The notes under the pieces: model-generated | Databases searched by the model: none | What the model was told of the DNA's origin: nothing | What the model saw: the letters and a program-made list of their open reading frames with translations, nothing else | Part shown: positions 128-48,601 of the stretch, in pieces | How positions within the stretch are numbered: the first letter of the stretch is position 1 | How the letters are laid out: every line of letters starts with the position of its first letter | Translations under genes and position numbers: made by a program | Virus record (IMG/VR): IMGVR_UViG_3300037511_000156 | Location: 1 to 48,601 of that record | From: a virus | Reading direction: 5' to 3' (one strand) | DNA: 48,601 bases

Positions 128-686
128 ACAGAGTAGGGTTTACGTTGGCCATGATGATCGGCTTCGGCATCGGGTTGATGCCCTGCGCTTCCTGTTCAGG
201 TGTGGGCTCGATCTTCCAGCGGCCAGCGCGTGTAAAGCATACATCAAGCAAACCTTCCTGCAGCTCTTCAATCTGCTCGAGCAAGAAACCGTTTACCTCC
301 AACCCTTTAAACCGGTCAAAGTTCTTGTCTTGGTTGTAGTTCTCGGCCATGAATATGATCCGGGAGCCGTTCGTAAACTCGGCAATGTGGTCCTGCTGGT
401 TGAAATTGGCCAGGAAGTTAGTAGGCACGATCCGTTTGAAAGTCTCGAGTGTAGTGCTTTTTAAAGTCGGGATAGAATCTCGGATGATCACCCATTTCGA
501 CCCGGGGTAGAACTTACAGAGCATGATAGCCGCCGCAATGCAGACGTATGACTTTCCGCCGCCCATCGCCCCGCCGTAACAAAGAAAGGTGTATTTGCCC
601 GAAAAGACCGCCTCTATAAACTCTTGTTGCTTCGGGTAAGCGCTAAATAGGACTTTCGTCTTAGAACTTGAGCTCTTGTCCGCCAA
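1..686 (-). CDS. terL: Terminase large subunit, N-terminal part (continues from 47799..48601 across the circular junction)
   Basis: The minus-strand frame is open from the window edge up to a TTG at 686, with an in-frame TAG just upstream at about 720-722. It encodes ...SGKYTFLCYGGAMGGGKSYVC (Walker A) ...NVNPTLLWPKKRVYDPWSKGTLPARWFYLPATIMDNPTLAN. That sequence is contiguous with the 47799..48521 ORF. Joined length is about 454 aa. Confidence 0.85.
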   Translation of the reverse strand, partial: MADKSSSSKTKVLFSAYPKQQEFIEAVFSGKYTFLCYGGAMGGGKSYVCIAAAIMLCKFYPGSKWVIIRDSIPTLKSTTLETFKRIVPTNFLANFNQQDHIAEFTNGSRIIFMAENYNQDKNFDRFKGLEVNGFLLEQIEELQEGLLDVCFTRAGRWKIEPTPEQEAQGINPMPKPIIMANVNPTLLWPKKRVYDPWSKGTLPARWFYLPATIMDNPTLANDEEYMAN

Positions 687-1134
687 TGTTGAATGATTGC
701 GGGTCGGGTATGGTATGCGCTATCTCTTGTTTATCCTTCCAGCGCTTCGGATCGCGGTTCTTGAGGAAGAATATAGCAGCGGCAGTATTTGGGGCTTCTT
801 CTTTGAAAGCTGTTTTTACACGGGTCTTTGGCTCATAATGCCATGTTCCGTCGCCGTGGTCTATGCGCTCTTCAATGTCTTCGTATACAACTTCTTTTGT
901 GACCAGGCCGTTAGCGCGTTTGTAAAGGCTATGAGCCACATTTGCATCCGCAATCTGCTTACCTTCGGTTAGGGACTCCGAAAATACCGGATGGTCTTTT
1001 TTCCATTCGTTGAGTGTAGACTCCGCTATGTCGAGAGCTAGACTGATTTCGGTATCGGTTAAGCCTAGTAAAGCGAGTTTAAACGCCATTTGAGGGTGAT
1101 AATCCTCTTTGAACTTGCTGGGCCGTCCTGCCAT
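661..1134 (-). CDS. terS: Terminase small subunit (HTH DNA-binding)
   Basis: 157 aa. The N-terminus MAGRPSKFKEDYHPQMAFKLALLGLTDTEISLALDIAESTLNEW is typical of a phage small-terminase HTH. The gene overlaps the terL start and sits directly upstream of it. Confidence 0.75.
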   Translation of the reverse strand: MAGRPSKFKEDYHPQMAFKLALLGLTDTEISLALDIAESTLNEWKKDHPVFSESLTEGKQIADANVAHSLYKRANGLVTKEVVYEDIEERIDHGDGTWHYEPKTRVKTAFKEEAPNTAAAIFFLKNRDPKRWKDKQEIAHTIPDPQSFNIGGQELKF

Positions 1135-2853: not shown

Positions 2854-3156
2854 CTATTCCCAGCCTTCGGCTATAGCCAGGGCTTTAGCAATTTCATCGT
2901 CTGATAGGAGCTTACATTTTTGTAGTACCTGTATTGTCAAAAAGCGTTCTTCATCATCGATATCGGAACTGGCTGTGTTGTTCAGAGCATCATCGAGGCA
3001 GCTGTCAACAAGATCTAAATTCCAGTCATCAAAAACCACGTGCGCGTAACCAAACGCGGGATTAATTTCACGTAATCCATTTATCATTTCCGATACTTCG
3101 GTGATGACTGTCGTAACAGGGACATCATTATAATCTGCTCTACAATTTTGACACAT
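2854..3156 (-). CDS. Hypothetical acidic protein
   Basis: 100-aa ORF. It overlaps the upstream HNH ORF end by 17 nt. Confidence 0.55.
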   Translation of the reverse strand: MCQNCRADYNDVPVTTVITEVSEMINGLREINPAFGYAHVVFDDWNLDLVDSCLDDALNNTASSDIDDEERFLTIQVLQKCKLLSDDEIAKALAIAEGWE

Positions 3157-3454
3157 GGCCTAGTTTTTTATTATGAATATCCTGTAAAAACTCCCTTTTG
3201 TCGGCTATATCGCCGTATTCGATGTGGTGCTCCCGGCACAAGGCCATCAAATTCTCGATCACGTCCTTACCCTGTATTCCGCCCATCTTCCTACTGTGTA
3301 TGTGGTGTATGTCCACCGCTCGCGCGCCGCAGATCTCGCAGGGGATGAAATCGGATACGTCATATCCGAAATGCTGCATGTAAATGCGTGTGTGTGCTTT
3401 CAAGAGGTCCGTTTGGGGCTCGAACCCAAATACAGCCGCTGACGCAGCTTGCAT
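3140..3454 (-). CDS. HNH endonuclease (true start probably Met26 at 3379)
   Basis: CEICGARAVDIHHIHSRKMGG...ENLMALCREHH is an HNH motif. The first 25 codons of the listed ORF overlap a tRNA-like structure, so the 3379 start (MQHFGYDV...) is preferred. Confidence 0.8.
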   Translation of the reverse strand: MQAASAAVFGFEPQTDLLKAHTRIYMQHFGYDVSDFIPCEICGARAVDIHHIHSRKMGGIQGKDVIENLMALCREHHIEYGDIADKREFLQDIHNKKLGHVSKL

Positions 3455-3474
3455 GCCACTCTGCCACCGGACCT
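3405..3474 (-). ncRNA. Deviant tRNA-like element A (canonical acceptor, D and T arms; abnormal anticodon arm)
   Basis: Minus strand: AGGTCCG/CGGACCT is a 7-bp acceptor. It is followed by a 3-bp D stem, GCA-GAGTGGCA-TGC, whose loop contains GG. The T arm is TTGGG-TTCGAGC-CCCAA. The anticodon position holds AGCTGC-GTCA-GCGGCT (6 bp plus a tetraloop) instead of 5 bp plus 7 nt. Confidence 0.55.
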
Positions 3475-3981: not shown

Positions 3982-4128
3982 GATGCGAGGCAGGATTCAA
4001 TACCTGCACGCCGTCTATAGTTGGAAAAGGCTTTGATATTGGAGTTCCACATCTCCTGGGGCGGCGTCACTCTGCGGCTAGGCCTGTCTTACTTCTCCAA
4101 CTTTGCGTCTTATTCCGCCACTCGCATC
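3982..4128 (-). ncRNA. tRNA-like module E1 (147 nt)
   Basis: Minus strand, in order:
- 8-bp acceptor GATGCGAG/CTCGCATC, followed by U;
- D arm GCG-GAATAAGA-CGC, resembling a class II tRNA D arm;
- 9-bp helix TTGGAGAAG/CTTTTCCAA with one G.U, capping a 62-nt insert;
- T-like hairpin GCAGG-TATTGAAT-CCTGC. Confidence 0.65.
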
Positions 4129-4140
4129 TTATATCTTAAA

Positions 4141-4293
4141 GGCGCACGGCAGGATTCGATACCTGCATTATTTTTTCAGGTTTTAAGGCCTGGGGTAAAT
4201 AGAACCTTGCCTATTTATTGCTCTATACCACCCCCGGTACCTCTCCGGGTATTTTCGAAAACGGTGGTTGCCTCCTAATCGGCCACGTGCGCC
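4141..4293 (-). ncRNA. tRNA-like module E2 (153 nt), paralog of E1
   Basis: Minus strand, in order:
- 8-bp acceptor GGCGCACG/CGTGCGCC, followed by U;
- D arm GCC-GATTAGGA-GGC;
- helix ACCACC/GGTGGT;
- hairpins CCCGG-AGAGGTA-CCGGG and TAAATAG-GCAAGGTT-CTATTTA;
- T-like hairpin GCAGG-TATCGAAT-CCTGC.
Four acceptor pairs and one D-stem pair covary with E1. Confidence 0.65.
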
Positions 4294-4872
4294 ATTAATT
4301 TCAAATAAAAGGGCGCCTAACGTGTGGCCCATGCGGCATATCCAGGCATTCTAAGCGCTATTTCGGTACCTGTATTTGCTATCCCCGTAGTGCTTTTAGT
4401 TTCAAATTAACCCCCTGACAATCGCCAGGGGGTAAGCTTTCTTGTAAAGCGGACATCAGGTTCTTCGTATAGCCCCTGCAACACTTCCCGATCTCTTATG
4501 AGGTCCACCGGGTAGACCTCGCCGCTGCTTAGTATAGAGTGAACGCGCCCTCACTCACCCTTGCGCTCTGTAAATTGCCTTCGGTATCCAAGGGTATAGA
4601 GTTAAACCTGCCGGCATTCAGAAACCCGTCTTTCCGGTTGTCAACTACAGCCAATCTGTAGCACCTTCGCCTAACTTTATTTACCGGTAGCGCCACTCGG
4701 TATGCACTTAGTTACGTCACAAATGCACGAAATACGCCCTACGCTAACCCGGCAGGTATGGGGATGTTTCACATCTTTGCCATCTCTAACGCTCAGGCCG
4801 CGTTTCTCTGTCTTTCCAGAGTGTCGGCCTATCGGACTTAACGCGTACACGTTTAACCGTCTGGCATGGTCG
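4294..4872 (-). ncRNA. Central ORF-poor, hairpin-dense domain of the structured-RNA locus
   Basis: Many stems are perfect or contain G.U only on the minus strand. Examples:
- AGGCCG..CTCTG-GAAAGA-CAGAG..CGGCCT (about 4793-4830)
- GATGT-GAA-ACATC
- CTACAG-ATTGG-CTGTAG
- GAGTGA-GGGCGCGT-TCACTC (4537-4556)
- GAGGTC-TACCCGGTG-GACCTC (4500-4520)
- CCCCCTG-GCGATTGT-CAGGGGG (4411-4432)
There is also long-range AGGGCGC (4545-4551) / GCGCCCT (4310-4316) complementarity. Confidence 0.45.
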
Positions 4873-4949
4873 TGGAGATCCAGGGAATTGAACCCCGGCG
4901 GGAATTCGCTTTGCGGATTGCGAGGCAAAAACCTTTAACCTTAATCCCC
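4873..4949 (-). ncRNA. tRNA-like module D (77 nt) with a G3.U70 acceptor stem
   Basis: Minus strand, in order:
- acceptor GGGGATT/GATCTCC with G3.U70 and discriminator A;
- no D stem (AAGGTTAAAGGTT is unpaired);
- TTTGC-CTCGCAATCC-GCAAA (10-nt loop);
- GCG-AATTCC-CGC;
- T arm CGGGG-TTCAATT-CCCTG.
The sequence CGACCA follows the discriminator. Confidence 0.6.
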
Positions 4950-6553: not shown

Positions 6554-6886
6554 ATGAATACACCAAAACCCGACTACATAACGCCAGGCGCTAAGGTAGT
6601 CATGGCGATAGGCGCCAGCAATCGCATATCTGATGCGGGCAAACTTAAAGCCTTGGATGCCATCACAGATATGGTTAAAACCGACTGCATCGACAATAAC
6701 TTTCACGTTAAGGAGGCGGGAACATATAATGGCCTGGAGGTATACGACCAATCTATGCCAGCAGGCTATATATTAGTCGGCATGTTCTGGTTTGATGAGT
6801 CGGAGCTTGGTAAACACTTTTGGTGGCGAATTTACGATTACTTAACTAAAGACTATCAATTTAACAGTAACCCTCACGCTGGATGA
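6554..6886 (+). CDS. Hypothetical protein
   Basis: 110-aa ORF. Confidence 0.6.
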   Translation: MNTPKPDYITPGAKVVMAIGASNRISDAGKLKALDAITDMVKTDCIDNNFHVKEAGTYNGLEVYDQSMPAGYILVGMFWFDESELGKHFWWRIYDYLTKDYQFNSNPHAG

Positions 6887-7041: not shown

Positions 7042-7371
7042 ATGGAAAAGAAAATGATAATAGTAACTGAATTTGATAAACTCCCACCAATATATGCCAC
7101 ATGGTATGAGTACTGGTTAAGACTCAACGAGTACATCGAAATAGATACTATAGACGTGGTTTTCAGGGATCATCCTCTTCGTGAAGAGACCGGTTACACG
7201 GAATACAAATGTAAATTGGATTTCATAAAGGCCAGGTGCTTCGAAGAAATGCAAAAGGTATGGAAAGATGCAGAGCCTGGACCTGACAGCCACCTAGACT
7301 GGCATGGTATGCCTGTGTATTACTTCTGGAAAGAGATCGATGAAAGATTTAAAATTGGAATAAAATCATGA
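7042..7371 (+). CDS. Hypothetical protein
   Basis: 109-aa ORF. Confidence 0.6.
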   Translation: MEKKMIIVTEFDKLPPIYATWYEYWLRLNEYIEIDTIDVVFRDHPLREETGYTEYKCKLDFIKARCFEEMQKVWKDAEPGPDSHLDWHGMPVYYFWKEIDERFKIGIKS

Positions 7372-7781
7372 CACAATTTAAACACACACCAGGACCTTGG
7401 AGATGGGAGTTGAATAAGCGTGGTAAGGGTATAACACTTTGTGGCGGCCAGCGTAGATTTGATAACTTCGTTATGTCTTTTTCACGTTGGGGTATGGGTG
7501 GCGCCACACCCAATTTCCGTGTACCTCTTAAAGATGATGATTCCTGCGGAATAATGGAAAAGGCGCACACAATGGGCGTAATTGTTAAAGGTCGGGAACA
7601 TCATCAGGATTGGTTTATGGATATCAACCATCCAGATGCTAAATTGATAGCCGCAGCGCCTGATCTTTTGGAAGCATGCATATCAGCCTTAAGCGTCGGA
7701 GAAATTCAATTTGAGTCTTGCGCTTTAAGCAGAGATGTTAAAAATAAATTACAGAAGGCCATTAAAAAAGCTACCGAATGA
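7368..7781 (+). CDS. Hypothetical protein
   Basis: 137-aa ORF with a 4-nt overlap onto its neighbours. Contains HTPGPW...AKLIAAAPDLLEAC. Confidence 0.65.
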   Translation: MTQFKHTPGPWRWELNKRGKGITLCGGQRRFDNFVMSFSRWGMGGATPNFRVPLKDDDSCGIMEKAHTMGVIVKGREHHQDWFMDINHPDAKLIAAAPDLLEACISALSVGEIQFESCALSRDVKNKLQKAIKKATE

Positions 7782-8437: not shown

Positions 8438-9352
8438 ATGAGCGAAAACCAATTAACAGTAAAGAATCTATTCGGCCGAGATGAAGTCCGGAACAAGTTT
8501 CAGGAGATGCTCGGCAAGCGCGCCCCGTCATTCATTACGTCGGTCTTGCAGATCGTAGCCTCAAACCAACTATTGGCAAATGCTGAACCAAACAGTATAT
8601 ACCATTCTGCAGCTGTGGCTGCTACGCTTGACCTCCCGCTGAATAACGCCCTCGGATTCGCTTATATAGTGCCTTATAATCAAAAGGATGACAAGGGAGT
8701 TTATCGCCAAGTGGCGCAGTTCCAAATAGGTTACAAGGGGCTAAAACAACTCGCGCTACGGAGCGGGCAATTCAAGATCATGAACGCTACAGATGTGCGT
8801 CAGGGCGAGATTGTTAAGCATGATCGCCTTACCGGAGAGATGCAATTCAAGTGGATTGAAGACGAAAACGAGCGCGATAAGCTGCCGATCATTGGCTTTG
8901 TAAGCTACTTTGAATTGCTGAATGGCTATACTCAGACGTTCTACATGACCGTCAAGAAAATCGAAAAGCATGCAAAGCGATTCAGTAAGACTTATCAGAA
9001 AGGATTCGGCCTATGGAAAGATGATTTCGAATCGATGGCCATGAAGACTGTTACAAAACTTAATCTCGGCAAGAATGCACCCCTGTCAATTGAAATGCAG
9101 AAGGCTATAATATTCGATCAGTCAGTAGTTAAGGACGCCGGAACAGCCGATGTTACTTACGTTGACAACGTGGATGAGGCCGCAGAACAGCTACCCGAAA
9201 ATCCAGAATCATCAAGGTTGTTTGATCTGATCGAAGCGGCTGAGACGGTGGAGGAGCTTGAAGGATACGGTAAGTATCTACAGCAAGATCATTTAGACGC
9301 ATACACGGTAAAGTTGGACGAACTTAAAGCCGCGAAGGATGCCAAAAAATGA
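8438..9352 (+). CDS. recT: RecT-family single-strand annealing protein
   Basis: 304 aa. Contains ...LGFAYIVPYN...QFQIGYKGLKQLALRSGQF..., typical of RecT. Paired with a downstream exonuclease. Confidence 0.8.
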   Translation: MSENQLTVKNLFGRDEVRNKFQEMLGKRAPSFITSVLQIVASNQLLANAEPNSIYHSAAVAATLDLPLNNALGFAYIVPYNQKDDKGVYRQVAQFQIGYKGLKQLALRSGQFKIMNATDVRQGEIVKHDRLTGEMQFKWIEDENERDKLPIIGFVSYFELLNGYTQTFYMTVKKIEKHAKRFSKTYQKGFGLWKDDFESMAMKTVTKLNLGKNAPLSIEMQKAIIFDQSVVKDAGTADVTYVDNVDEAAEQLPENPESSRLFDLIEAAETVEELEGYGKYLQQDHLDAYTVKLDELKAAKDAKK

Positions 9353-21582: not shown

Positions 21583-23331
21583 TTAGGTCATTAAGTATAC
21601 ACCAGAATAAGCCCCGTTAACCGGACGTTTGAATTGATATCCGTCAATGTCCTCTGCAGCGAGAGGATGTGAGGCAATATATGCGCCGCTTACACTCTGA
21701 TAGTTAGGACTGCTCAGAGAGTTTATATTGTAGTCTCCAGCGCTATAACTTTTAAACATAGGCGCCGCAGAACTAGTGGTGATGTAGTTATCAATCACGG
21801 CCTCACTGAGGTTAGGGCTATTCAGTGTGGCATACTGTGTTGTGTCCTTGTTGATAATCACGTTGTCAGCAATGATTAACTTTCGGAATGTTGTCGTGAC
21901 ACCCGAAGTCGCCTTCGCAATATAAAAAGGCACATTGCCAGCTTTTCCGGATGGTGATACGATAGTGTTATGGATAATCTTAACATCTATACTAGATCCG
22001 TCCTGAGCTGTATTCTGCGCTAATCCCAAATAGAAATTACTTTCCATATTCGCCGTTTTGTTGACGAACAAATTGGAAAATATTTCCTGATTGCCGGCAT
22101 GAATTCCAGTATTCATTGAAAGCGTATAGGTTGCGCTGAGGACTTTGTTTCTGAACCAATACACGTTCTTATTGCCCGGATTCAACTGGAATGCATTGCT
22201 GTGGTTGTCGTCCAGCTTAAACCCAGCATCCTCAATAATGCACTCTGAAATCTCACTTTCCCGAGTTAATCCGACCTGAATACCATCCGCGCCGGTACGC
22301 TTGGTGTGCATCCGAAGAATAGTCAAATGGGTTATTGGCGCATACCCTTGATTATCAGTAAACCGTCCGATGTAATTACCCTCACTTAACGTACCCTCTA
22401 CGAAGCAGTCAGTAAAGCTGTGGCCATCAGTGGTGAACCCACTATCATAGTTTAACCCCGCAGTATTCTGAGTGGCGAGTTCTATGCCTGCGCCAAGAAC
22501 CTTTTCGTGCCCATTGCAGTAGATTCTATTGAGCGCGATATTCTTTGCTCCGGCCGCTGCCGATGATCCCCATCCTTCAATGTAAATGATCTGAGCTCCC
22601 GGTGAATTTACATGAAATTCTATACCGTAAGGTATATTCGGATCGCCGCCGCCATCTATAAATAGGTTTTGGCAGCCCAGTGTTATTTTAAGTCCATAAT
22701 TGGAGCCTGTGTGATTGACGACAGCCTTTTGACCTGGTACGTTCTGAATGGTTACCGGCTGGTCTGGGTTATTGCTGACGAATTCTTGCAGCCCAAGCCA
22801 CGCCGACAGGTTCGGCGCGGTACCCTTAACCCCTATCTTATAGTTCGTCATGTTTACGCCAGTTTTGGTGTAATACGTGACTTTCGAGCCACCATTCGCG
22901 CTAAAATCCCATACTTCATTGAATCCTGCCTCTGAGGTTACGCGCGGCGGGGCAACACGTATTTTTTTACTCCGGCGCATAAAGGAATTAGTCCCTTTCG
23001 TGACTATCGCGGTGAGGTATATGAAGAGGTGGCGATTGTTTAAATCTACGGACGTGGTCGGCGTCCAGGAGGCAATATTGCCCGTTCCCGTAAGTAAAAC
23101 CCGCGGCGTCCGACCAGGCATGAGGGAATGTGCATCTTGTATGGCCCATGTTACCGAGTATCCTGTAGGCGGCGTAATACCGAGATTATAGGAAGTGCCC
23201 ACACGCATTTCGTACGCTGGCAAATCAAATTCAATGCCCTCACCTAAACCGTTCGGCGAATTGTCGGGTGGCGTTGGAACCACTGATCTACGGCGTTGCG
23301 ATAAAGATCCTGTAAATTGTATTGGCCTCAT
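21583..23331 (-). CDS. Tailspike-like protein with a probable right-handed beta-helix (pectate-lyase fold)
   Basis: 582 aa. The long central stretch has periodic N/G/I-rich strands: CQNLFIDGGGDPNIPYGIEFHVNS...NIALNRIYCNGHEK...IIEDAGFKLDDNHSNAF. Confidence 0.5.
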   Translation of the reverse strand: MRPIQFTGSLSQRRRSVVPTPPDNSPNGLGEGIEFDLPAYEMRVGTSYNLGITPPTGYSVTWAIQDAHSLMPGRTPRVLLTGTGNIASWTPTTSVDLNNRHLFIYLTAIVTKGTNSFMRRSKKIRVAPPRVTSEAGFNEVWDFSANGGSKVTYYTKTGVNMTNYKIGVKGTAPNLSAWLGLQEFVSNNPDQPVTIQNVPGQKAVVNHTGSNYGLKITLGCQNLFIDGGGDPNIPYGIEFHVNSPGAQIIYIEGWGSSAAAGAKNIALNRIYCNGHEKVLGAGIELATQNTAGLNYDSGFTTDGHSFTDCFVEGTLSEGNYIGRFTDNQGYAPITHLTILRMHTKRTGADGIQVGLTRESEISECIIEDAGFKLDDNHSNAFQLNPGNKNVYWFRNKVLSATYTLSMNTGIHAGNQEIFSNLFVNKTANMESNFYLGLAQNTAQDGSSIDVKIIHNTIVSPSGKAGNVPFYIAKATSGVTTTFRKLIIADNVIINKDTTQYATLNSPNLSEAVIDNYITTSSAAPMFKSYSAGDYNINSLSSPNYQSVSGAYIASHPLAAEDIDGYQFKRPVNGAYSGVYLMT

Positions 23332-47798: not shown

Positions 47799-48601
47799 CT
47801 ATTGCCGCGCGTACTTTTTCGGATTGGTGATGAATTCTTCGTAGAAAGTGCCTAAAAGGTACCGGAATGTATCGCCGTGGTGCTGGCCTTTGTCTTTGGT
47901 CTTGATAAGGTCTCCAAATTCATCTACCTGCGCGCTGACGATATCCGCAATGGTTTTCTCGCAGTTCTCGGTGATCGTAAATTCAGCGTGTTGCAACACA
48001 GAGTTGCACAATACCCGGGAATCTGTGATATGTAGATTTTGCTTTCTGACCAGTATCGCCCGATCGTGAAGCCGTAGCTTTTCCTGAATAACTCGATAAT
48101 GATTCAAATTGCCGCGTGTAAGGGCATTTCGGTTTCGACCCGTGGCATCGCCGGTTATCTGAATATTACCGGTCCAACGCGGATATTTCGCTGCCACAAC
48201 CTCGCAGACTTCCTCAGAAGATCCGTTATTGATTTCGATCTCGTCGAACGCTGCAGCGCGCCATAAATCCAACTGCTGCCCGATCAGAGCGGTCATAGGC
48301 TCTTTATTAAAGTCGAAAGAGACGGTAATCGGCAGGTGAGGATTCGGCACATAGCTATCCTTCGGACGGACGTGTTTGGCATATCCGAATGAGTAGAAGA
48401 ACGGATTTTCAACCGCAAACGCCGTCCAGTCGCCCAGGATGTTGCGCTTGTACGTTAGTTCCTCGAGCATGGATTGATTGGCCATGTACTCTTCGTCGTT
48501 CGCCAGGGTTGGGTTATCCATGATTGTAGCCGGCAGATAGAACCACCGGGCCGGTAGCGTGCCCTTTGACCACGGATCGTAAACGCGTTTCTTCGGCCAC
48601 A
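47799..48601 (-). CDS. terL: Terminase large subunit, C-terminal (nuclease) part; continues from 128..686 across the junction
   Basis: The frame is open to the window end. ...WPKKRVYDPWSKGTLPARWFYLPATIMDNPTLANDEEY... is contiguous with the N-terminal fragment. The Met at 48521 listed in the ORF track is internal. Confidence 0.85.
   Translation of the reverse strand, partial: WPKKRVYDPWSKGTLPARWFYLPATIMDNPTLANDEEYMANQSMLEELTYKRNILGDWTAFAVENPFFYSFGYAKHVRPKDSYVPNPHLPITVSFDFNKEPMTALIGQQLDLWRAAAFDEIEINNGSSEEVCEVVAAKYPRWTGNIQITGDATGRNRNALTRGNLNHYRVIQEKLRLHDRAILVRKQNLHITDSRVLCNSVLQHAEFTITENCEKTIADIVSAQVDEFGDLIKTKDKGQHHGDTFRYLLGTFYEEFITNPKKYARQ
48475..48601. repeat. Terminal direct repeat, copy 2 (identical to 1..127)
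   Basis: Exact 127-nt identity with the window start. Confidence 0.95.

Follow-up and report, generated by a model that had tools for sequence, protein, structure and literature searches.

We identified two tandem genes for tRNA-like RNAs without an anticodon arm, E2 and E1, on the minus strand of IMG/VR record IMGVR_UViG_3300037511_000156 (positions 1 to 48,601; this whole stretch of 48,601 nucleotides is referred to as the window). Both retain an acceptor-like helix, a D arm of the tRNA-Leu type and a T-like arm, with an insert where the anticodon and variable arms would be found. They belong to a family of E1/E2-like RNAs recovered from ~190 viral contigs, in which the helices of the frame covary and the insert is exchangeable. 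We infer that E1 and E2 are scaffold RNAs derived from tRNA-Leu and matured by tRNA-processing enzymes. This explanation, with the transcription, processing and effector role that it assumes, has in our judgment a little better than an even chance of being correct.

Layout and fold of E1 and E2

The two elements and the linker between them are arranged as follows (R1 is the covariance model of the family described below).

4293 to 4141, minus strand: E2, anticodon-less tRNA-like RNA gene (sequence, fold, structural descriptor and model R1)
4293, minus strand: G-1 of E2, followed by the 7-bp acceptor-like helix (4292-4286 / 4148-4142), with C73 at 4141
4293-4286, minus strand: 5' strand of the E2 terminal helix, GGCGCACG, read directly
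4285-4284, minus strand: U8-G9 of E2, with the D-like arm GCC-GAUUAGGA-GGC at 4283-4270, the loop of which retains GG (sequence, fold and R1)
4269-4167, minus strand: variable insert of E2 in place of the anticodon and variable arms, with the 10-nt palindrome UUUUCGAAAA
4166-4149, minus strand: T-like arm of E2, GCAGG-UAUCGAAU-CCUGC (5 bp, 8-nt loop), abutting the 3' strand of the terminal helix
4148-4141, minus strand: 3' strand of the E2 terminal helix, CGUGCGCC
4140-4136, minus strand: E2 trailer, UUUAA
4129-4140, minus strand: A/U-rich linker UUUAAGAUAUAA, the 12-nt spacer between E2 and E1; a cassette separator kept in related phages and putative 3'-processing site
4128 to 3982, minus strand: E1, anticodon-less tRNA-like RNA gene (sequence, fold, structural descriptor, R1 and a weak manA match)
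4128, minus strand: G-1 of E1, followed by the 7-bp acceptor-like helix (4127-4121 / 3989-3983), with C73 at 3982
4128-4121, minus strand: 5' strand of the E1 terminal helix, GAUGCGAG
4120-4119, minus strand: U8-G9 of E1, with the D-like arm GCG-GAAUAAGA-CGC at 4118-4105 (sequence, fold and alignment)
4104-4008, minus strand: variable insert of E1, in which a long helix (AGUUGGAGAAG/CUUUUCCAACU) starts 2 nt past the D stem
4007-3990, minus strand: T-like arm of E1, GCAGG-UAUUGAAU-CCUGC
3989-3982, minus strand: 3' strand of the E1 terminal helix, CUCGCAUC
3981-3977, minus strand: E1 trailer, UUUAA

An earlier reading of this DNA (the original prediction) described tandem paralogous tRNA-like modules that share one architecture, and direct reading of the minus strand confirms this. 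The terminal helices of E1 and E2 differ at positions 2, 3, 6 and 7 and their D stems by a single G-C to C-G change; as predicted, every one of these differences is compensated. The middles (~100 nt each) do not align with each other. A fold check had been proposed with the terminal helix constrained; run without constraint, RNAfold recovered the terminal helix, the D hairpin and the T-like hairpin in both modules (z-scores of the E1 and E2 folds, -2.25 and -3.84). The 18-nt T-hairpin pattern occurs twice in the window, only at E1 and E2 (0.15 occurrences expected), and a descriptor combining the 7-bp helix, U, a 3-bp D hairpin and the adjacent T hairpin finds these two elements as its sole matches in 48.6 kb, compared with a mean of 0.4 matches on shuffled windows.

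Measured against ordinary tRNAs, both elements have the 7-bp acceptor stem (plus the extra G-1:C73 pair) and the 5-bp T stem with its closing G-C, and the T-like loop has 8 nt (UAUYGAAU) instead of 7, as had been noticed originally. An anticodon stem (5 bp with a 7-nt loop) is absent from both folds, and CCA is not encoded in either gene. The 8-nt internal hairpin loops, previously listed as another systematic feature, are not supported, as they lie in inserts that are not conserved in orthologues.

Standard annotation tools do not report these genes. ARAGORN with default settings made no call at E1 or E2, Rfam gave nothing in the whole window at gathering thresholds, and the models for tRNA (RF00005), tRNA-Sec, tmRNA and YrlA had no match at E1/E2 at E<=10. 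We therefore rejected a tmRNA, tRNA-Sec or YrlA identity. The sole Rfam match on the elements at E<=10 is that of E1 to manA (RF01745; 25.9 bits, E 4e-4, gathering score 55.2); E2 has no manA match at that threshold. When ARAGORN was relaxed to an 80% threshold with introns of up to 300 nt, it forced Leu(aag) and Ser(cga) models with introns of 57 and 71 nt, in which the D and anticodon stems are mispaired, and made several obviously spurious calls alongside. Ordinary or intron-containing tRNAs, named by the original prediction as an outcome that would overturn it, are thus rejected on the evidence of ARAGORN (default, intron and relaxed modes) and Rfam.

A phage RNA family related to tRNA-Leu

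The search for further copies suggested by the original prediction yielded a family whose helices covary. The exact hairpin GCAGGTATNGAATCCTGC is present at 105 IMG/VR loci, and at most of these the 7-8 nt past the hairpin pair with a segment 40-300 nt upstream, which is followed by UGGCGGAAGAUAGACGC or a close variant. The D-arm string UGGCGGAAGAUAGACGC by itself retrieved 88 loci with two kinds of 3' arm. Type A elements have the E1/E2-type T hairpin with covarying stems, and Type B elements share the 5' half (acceptor strand and UGGCGGAAGAUAGACGC) and end in another arm (e.g., GCAAGGG-UGAAAGU-CCCUUGC). Type B was seen in contigs L106-L179 (e.g., L135 7038-7151, L158 6052-6196, L109 2757-2896); in its 3' arm, a UGARAGU-type loop caps a stem of 6-7 bp, giving a coaxial stack longer than that of a tRNA. 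No model for the family exists in Rfam 15, and no description of it was found in the literature searched by motif sequence and by the topic of phage tRNA-like RNAs.

For a pairing-blind test, D motifs and T hairpins were picked by motif and proximity alone (83 pairs). All seven acceptor pairs form in 61 of the 83 and six of the seven in 10 more; the control with the 3' strand of another element gave 1/83. Within a core alignment of 56 frames, curated from 74 sequences (the 83-pair test supplies the uncurated figures), pairing in the acceptor-like helix reaches 96.2% and double changes occur at each of its 7 positions, the D stem is 100% paired, and the T-like stem is 100% paired with covariation at 4/5 pairs and an invariant closing G-C. 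Slid controls, with partners moved by 1-3 columns, are 35-46% paired. The acceptor helix takes all four Watson-Crick pair types across ~60 distinct frames, and the selection on base pairing that was proposed from the E1/E2 differences is borne out family-wide. G.U pairs are far commoner in the inner acceptor columns than other non-Watson-Crick pairs, which argues for an RNA read from this strand and not for a DNA palindrome.

The covariance model R1 was built from 22 members with different acceptor sequences, excluding the window, and was run with filters off for the scores. It gives 53.5 bits to E1 (E 6.8e-17) and 44.3 bits to full-length E2 (E 7.5e-14), neither of which is in the training set. 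Both show the family layout: a 7-bp helix, UG, a tRNA-Leu-type D arm, an insert, and a 5-bp stem with a UAUCGAAU-type loop. The 8-bp acceptor of the original prediction holds only in part. The eighth pair (-1:73) is real in E1 and E2, where G-1:C73 is present, as it is in most of their orthologues, but it forms in 43 of 71 members (59%; 30 expected from base frequencies). The acceptor is better read as 7 bp plus an optional -1:73 pair, and its parallels with tRNA-His and tRNA-Sec, drawn in the original prediction, are tentative.

R1 also recognizes bona fide tRNA-Leu genes, at 27-46 bits in contigs L132, L151, L167 and L173 and at 30.2 bits in S-CREM1; the only other isotype reached was tRNA-Arg (two genes, 18.3 and 32.2 bits). 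The class II (Leu-type) D arm of the original prediction is borne out in this way by a model from which E1 and E2 are absent. In the alignment of R1 with tRNA-Leu, the family T loop is one base longer (GGUAUCGAAUCC vs GGU-UCAAGUCC) and the D loop ~2 nt shorter, and among members the D loops grade from GAAGAUAGA to the canonical tRNA-Leu GAAUUGGUAGA. The L173 element at 7262-7402 has its first 26 nt, T stem and 3' strand in common with the adjacent tRNA-Leu(AAG) at 6610-6696 (an ARAGORN call with a weak anticodon stem of its own); it differs by a single A inserted in the T loop and by an ~85-nt insert that replaces the anticodon and variable arms. Elements in L132 and L167 also lie beside tRNA-Leu(AAG), and L173 and L151 each hold five or six R1 matches, tRNA-Leu genes included. 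Based on the R1 matches, the grading of the D loops and the near-duplicate in L173, the family most likely arose by duplication of phage tRNA-Leu genes.

The likeness to class II tRNA-Leu extends to the 7-bp acceptor, U8, the D arm (UGGCGGAA..UAGACGC), and the T stem of 5 bp, which is closed by a G53-C61-like pair. Acceptor and T helix together make a stack of 12 bp, as in tRNA-Leu, regardless of element length. The commonest end bases are likewise U-1, G1:C72 and A73 (56%, 55% and 42% of members, with N73-CCA encoded in 8/71). Trailers are A/U-rich in both (across the family, the five bases past the helix are G-poor, with 1-11% G, and A/U-rich), and tandem arrays are common (two elements in L121 are 1 nt apart). 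Unlike tRNA-Leu, the family lacks an anticodon stem-loop and a regular variable arm and has inserts of ~20 to 250 nt instead, for an overall length of ~60 to 330 nt. In its 8-nt T loop, an additional A follows the first U, and its D loop usually lacks GG and is shorter by 2-3 nt. Family elements are not called by ARAGORN or RF00005 (ARAGORN tRNA calls were made for 2 of 77 unique Type A elements). Replacement of the anticodon arm by a non-homologous insert, predicted for E1 and E2, holds across the family; the smallest members (~70 nt) have only a 3-bp mini-hairpin in the middle and no room for an anticodon arm.

Orthologues of both elements were identified in two contigs: L209, reached via a homologue of the 116-aa protein encoded downstream of E1, and L210, found by scanning metagenomes with a 23-nt pattern. 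The 116-aa protein has three homologues in a large protein database, with contig DNA for two, of which L209 was informative. No relatives were found in IMG/VR through this protein and no close relatives among GenBank phages, either by DNA or by the protein of the 582-aa open reading frame (ORF) at 21583-23331. The E1 orthologues of the window, L209 and L210 are identical in the linker, acceptor strand, UG-GCGGAA, T arm, 3' strand and UUUAAA, and their interiors (97 nt in the window, ~150 and ~85 nt in the relatives, or ~195 and ~135 nt by another count) cannot be aligned. The T loop reads UAUUGAAU in the window, UAUAUGAAU in L209 and UAUACGAAU in L210, the latter two being 9 nt long. In L209, the E1 orthologue (E1') has a hairpin inserted in the D loop, and its base 73 is A. 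The E2 orthologues keep the helix, their inserts are not conserved in L209 or L210, and that of L210 has a T-like stem with an 11-nt loop. The frame is under strong constraint, and the insert is free or diversifying.

Both related contigs have an extra cassette between the E2 and E1 orthologues, and every cassette is separated by UUUAAGAUAUAA. The extra cassette (L209 563-668, L210 3240-3310, minus strand) is without tRNA-like D and T features; that of L210 is closed by a 7-bp helix, AAACACG/CGUGUUU.

The family is essentially phage-borne. Among genomes representing 185,579 species (one each, 596 Gb), the 18-mer occurs at 24 loci, which is near chance, and there are ~9 complete elements, including those in Petrimonas, Dysgonomonas, Dyadobacter, Brocadia and Acidobacteria. 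Plausible sources of these are prophages or phage contigs that were mis-binned. A dispersed host DNA repeat, the other outcome that the original prediction had set against itself, is not what these counts describe. The T hairpin is found at 100% identity in ~88 GenBank phages of the phAPEC8 group. In coliphage phAPEC8 itself (JX561091, ~60019-60096), the element is 78 nt long, unannotated, placed between tRNA-Asn and tRNA-Thr with 6-nt spacers, and scored at 34 bits by R1. The tRNA array of the same genome (locus L207) has long unannotated gaps at 1727-2055, 2142-2268, 2610-2925 and 3000-3097. One of these holds a tRNA-like GGAAGGG...GGGAG-UUCGACU-CUCCC-UCCUUCC-GCCA (~1962-2051), and more non-canonical tRNA-like RNAs may be there. 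In L031 (1048-2030), a weak YrlA-like match (32 bits), a tRNA, a full tmRNA (118.7 bits) and a family element stand in a row. We considered and rejected an obligate association with tRNA arrays, as a tRNA lies within 500 nt of only 8 of 70 elements. A common downstream regulon was also rejected, as the downstream ORFs are unrelated to one another.

Resemblance to manA and genomic setting

The manA motif was classed as cis-regulatory, and as a riboswitch candidate, by Weinberg et al. 2010 (PMC2864571). Recent cryo-EM work shows manA RNAs joined into decamers and 60-mer cages by kissing loops, which belong to variable peripheral helices; this July 2026 preprint makes no mention of tRNA (bioRxiv 10.64898/2026.07.01.735769). 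The manA consensus runs from P1 and UG through a D-like arm, which carries GAAUAA and an internal hairpin, to the middle helices, one more stem and a terminal hairpin (GugGG-UAuacAguAAU-CCcaC) that abuts the 3' strand of P1. This layout has the topology of a class II cloverleaf.

The family and manA are both phage-borne. In each, UG comes after a terminal helix, the D-like arm contains GAAUAA, the middle has several helices, and the 3' strand is immediately preceded by a hairpin of 5 bp whose loop reads UAU...AAU; both occur alone upstream of ORFs, in tandem or within a tRNA array. In S-CREM1, the genuine manA (96.6 bits) is flanked by tRNA-Leu and tRNA-Asn at distances of 1 and 0 nt; in P-SSM2 and P-SSM4, manA comes after an ORF and a box resembling TATAAT. 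In manA, a GGGAG/CUCCC helix of 5 bp is conserved, the D-like stem has 2 bp and always carries an internal hairpin, the loop has 11 nt and the middle helices are conserved, whereas the loop of E1 and E2 has 8 nt and their interiors are not conserved between orthologues. In the cmscan alignment, E1 spans manA model positions 1-192, with the middle regions skipped as local ends. No manA match was found in 19 family loci or in the L209 orthologue of E1, and R1 does not find genuine manA even with filters off. Membership of E1 and E2 in manA was thus rejected: E1 is sub-threshold, E2 has no match, and the assignment fails in the orthologue, the 19 loci and the reciprocal model. We retain manA only as a relative in architecture. 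The shared layout, the weak match of E1 and the intermediate forms nonetheless suggest kinship, and we regard common ancestry of the family and manA as a tentative idea that is probably wrong but merits attention. Overall, the core interpretation of the original prediction is supported, and the links of E1 and E2 to tRNA-Leu genes and to the manA motif go beyond it.

Other non-decoding RNAs that borrow tRNA architecture include T4 rnaC and rnaD, YrlA and mascRNA. In T4, both genes close the tRNA cluster of the phage, and a canonical T arm forms the end of rnaC. The enzymes that process tRNAs also act on YrlA and mascRNA. None of these is related in sequence to the family (the T4 locus has no R1 match), and none is known to have a hypervariable insert inside a conserved tRNA-Leu frame. 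YrlA also differs in its permuted topology, with RNA ends at an anticodon-stem position, and mascRNA is eukaryotic. The engineered tRNA scaffold, in which a payload RNA replaces the anticodon arm, yields stable, correctly processed RNA in E. coli. It resembles the family in its intact frame of acceptor, D and T parts with foreign RNA in place of the anticodon arm. It is a laboratory construct, and the family, with its putative processing and stabilization, would be its natural counterpart.

The window is a phage genome, as indicated by the following genes.

661-1134, minus strand: terS
3140-3454, minus strand: HNH gene
8438-9352, plus strand: RecT
47799-48521, minus strand: terL fragment

Around E2 and E1, ~1.2 kb of the minus strand (5128 to 3935) is free of coding sequence, with a 48-aa ORF upstream and genes for the secreted 116-aa protein, HNH and terminase downstream. 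The end of E1 is 49 nt from the GTG of ORF 3932-3582. An ARAGORN 'tRNA-???' call with a 2-base anticodon (3404-3473, minus strand) falls within the HNH ORF and is probably a false positive.

Other features were noted in this non-coding island. At 4949 to 4873 (minus strand) is a degenerate 77-nt tRNA-like element with G3:U70, A73 and the T arm CGGGG-UUCAAUU-CCCUG, which scores 18 bits with the Rfam tRNA model and is called by ARAGORN only at the 80% threshold. The matching upstream region has genuine tRNA-Met(CAU) and tRNA-Val in L210 and another tRNA-like RNA ending in CCA in L209. A non-coding block of ~245 nt at 4398-4643 (minus strand; GUGACAACCGGAAAGACGGG...CCCCCUGGCGAUUGUCAGGGGGUUAAUUUGAAA), upstream of E2, is ~97% identical to L210 4290 to 4050, with differing flanks. 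It has one compensatory double change (GAGGUC..GACCUC vs GAUGUC..GACAUC) and ends in a terminator-like hairpin that is found in L209 too. No credible Rfam match was obtained for this block, just chance-level lncRNA (long non-coding RNA) matches. It is a candidate second structured RNA. In all three related phages, the motif UU(A/U)AUUUGAAA(C/U)UAA recurs where modules of the island meet:

4294-4312 and 4393-4410 in the window; 150-165 in L209; 3795-3815 and 4045-4065 in L210: boundary motif sites

The motif may serve as a promoter of the phage or mark boundaries in another way; it gave no sigma-70 match. In a search of the phage genome for antisense targets of the inserts, the sole match was 15 nt long and lay in the T-arm/acceptor 3' segment, not in an insert; it is probably due to chance. 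This exact copy of the E1 3' segment ATTGAATCCTGCCTC is at 22918-22932 on the plus strand, within ORF 21583-23331 (~0.014 expected), with no hairpin and no further similarity around it.

Possible functions and significance

The explanation that we favor, a tRNA-derived scaffold, would work as follows. The E2-E1 pair would be transcribed on the minus strand, ahead of the genes for the small secreted protein, HNH and terminase. The two RNAs keep the top half of a tRNA, in which a 7-bp acceptor-like helix is stacked on a 5-bp T-like stem, together with U8, a tRNA-Leu-type D arm and a T loop enlarged by 1 nt. Host tRNA-maturation enzymes could then excise each unit, with RNase P acting at the 5' side and RNase Z, or RNase E with trimming, at the A/U-rich UUUAA trailer on the 3' side, to give stable RNAs of ~150 nt. 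The tRNA frame would serve as a scaffold for processing and stability, or as a handle for tRNA-binding proteins, and the variable insert would be a lineage-specific effector.

Several observations weigh against this explanation. The L209 orthologue of E2 has no T hairpin at all. Most members are solitary: the 8 of 70 with a tRNA within 500 nt compare with ~6% for random positions. For about half, the distance to the next downstream ORF is 12-50 nt, a placement that a cis-acting role would fit as well. No convincing sigma-70 promoter or intrinsic terminator was found flanking the E2-E1 pair, and none of the former upstream of E2. RNase P or RNase Z could recognize these RNAs less well because of their 8-nt T loop and reduced D loop. 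Family inserts are only modestly more structured than their shuffles (median z ~ -1), and thus the term 'effector payload' may overstate many of them. The curation of the 56-frame alignment also belongs here.

A cis-acting mRNA element would be a 5'-untranslated-region regulator of the riboswitch sort once put forward for manA, RNase P/Z 'punctuation' that uncouples cistrons, or a stabilizing structured 5' cap. The position of E1 ahead of ORF 3932-3582 is what such an element would have, as are ORF starts within 50 nt in 31 of 71 members (some with a Shine-Dalgarno sequence 10-20 nt past the 3' strand), the scarcity of nearby tRNAs and the classification of manA (PMC2864571). We consider this role unlikely because the downstream genes are unrelated (ThyX, RusA, an intein-containing polymerase subunit and many small ORFs, named by sequence reading), and members occur within tRNA arrays and in tandem with no intervening ORF. 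In L209, an additional ORF intervenes between E1' and the 116-aa gene; the gene has retained a conserved leader of its own, and thus E1 is not tied to it. Further, a ligand pocket would need conservation exactly where these RNAs vary. A decoy is less probable still: here the RNA, as a mimic of the top half, would sequester or block an anti-phage toxin or host enzyme acting on the tRNA acceptor/T-arm or elbow, with CCA-end-modifying or acceptor-cleaving toxins and processing or modification enzymes as proposed targets. It would account for the conservation of only those tRNA parts that are recognized independently of the anticodon, for the restriction to phages (of many host phyla), for rapid turnover and tandem arrays of the kind expected in an arms race, and for the smallest members, which are hardly more than the frame. 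It leaves the variable inserts without explanation and is purely inferential, and no defence or anti-defence gene is linked in the loci examined. Self-assembly of the manA kind, with a conserved core and variable peripheral helices that form kissing-loop oligomers or cages, seems improbable. The match of E1 across the whole RF01745 model, the common architecture (P1, UG, a D-like arm with GAAUAA and the UAU...AAU hairpin), the multimers formed by manA (bioRxiv 10.64898/2026.07.01.735769) and the palindrome in E2 speak for it. So do the S-CREM1 manA directly after tRNA-Leu and intermediates such as the D-loop hairpins of L209 E1' and an L173 element and the 9-nt and 11-nt T loops. However, E1 is far under the manA gathering score, the model searches failed in both directions as described above, and we found no E1-E2 kissing (loop-loop) complementarity of at least 8 nt.

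Aminoacylation is very unlikely. E1 and E2 would be histidylated via G-1:C73 after CCA addition and RNase P cleavage that leaves G-1 in place, A73 members would be leucylated, and the products would serve outside decoding, to donate amino acids or as sinks for synthetases. Microhelices of 8 bp with G-1:C73 are charged by HisRS, and E. coli tRNA-Leu without its anticodon and variable arms is still leucylated (PMC9976931). E1 and E2 both retain G-1:C73 despite four other helix changes, which could in principle allow their histidylation, and a subset of members has A73 and an encoded ACCA. On the other side, the -1:73 pair is not conserved in the family, the L209 orthologue of E1 has A73, and E1 and E2 encode no CCA. 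G18G19 is lost from most family D loops (including that of E1; E2 keeps GG). This loss and the extra T-loop base affect exactly the tertiary contacts that leucylation needs, and aminoacylation is unlikely for most members; E1 and E2 have C73. Finally, there is hardly any chance that the elements are non-functional, whether as decaying tRNA pseudogenes, intron-containing true tRNAs or a DNA-level repeat or recombination site. Identical termini with differing interiors in the three related phages could reflect recombination at DNA boundary sequences, and relaxed ARAGORN does force Leu(aag) and Ser(cga) models. Those models are mispaired, however, and the smallest members could not hold an anticodon arm. 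Decay or a DNA-level repeat would also not predict covariation through four Watson-Crick pair types in ~60 frames, retention of the derived 8-nt T loop in many otherwise unrelated contigs or the near absence of elements from host genomes.

A broader synthesis is doubtful but worth stating: that phages of many bacterial phyla carry the scaffold RNAs as an unrecognized class of RNA genes made from gutted tRNA-Leu, that the retained top half is a universal frame for processing and stability, that hypervariable inserts are exchanged cassette-like between identical frames and act as anti-defence decoys or in self-assembly, and that the orphan manA of cyanophages is the same invention, derived from tRNA, and not a riboswitch.

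The usual explanations for tRNA genes in phages are codon usage or escape from tRNA-cleaving defences. The family described here forms a parallel lineage, apparently a common one: its phage 'tRNA genes' are unable to decode at all, are missed by every standard annotator and are absent from Rfam. The phAPEC8-group coliphages are a cultured, tractable carrier with one copy between tRNA-Asn and tRNA-Thr, and thus expression, processing, partners and phenotype are directly testable. The resemblance to manA offers a possible evolutionary origin for an orphan motif and a reason to revisit its 'riboswitch' label. With its conserved frame and variable insert, the family would be a natural version of the engineered tRNA scaffold, and may represent a general route by which phages deliver small structured RNAs.

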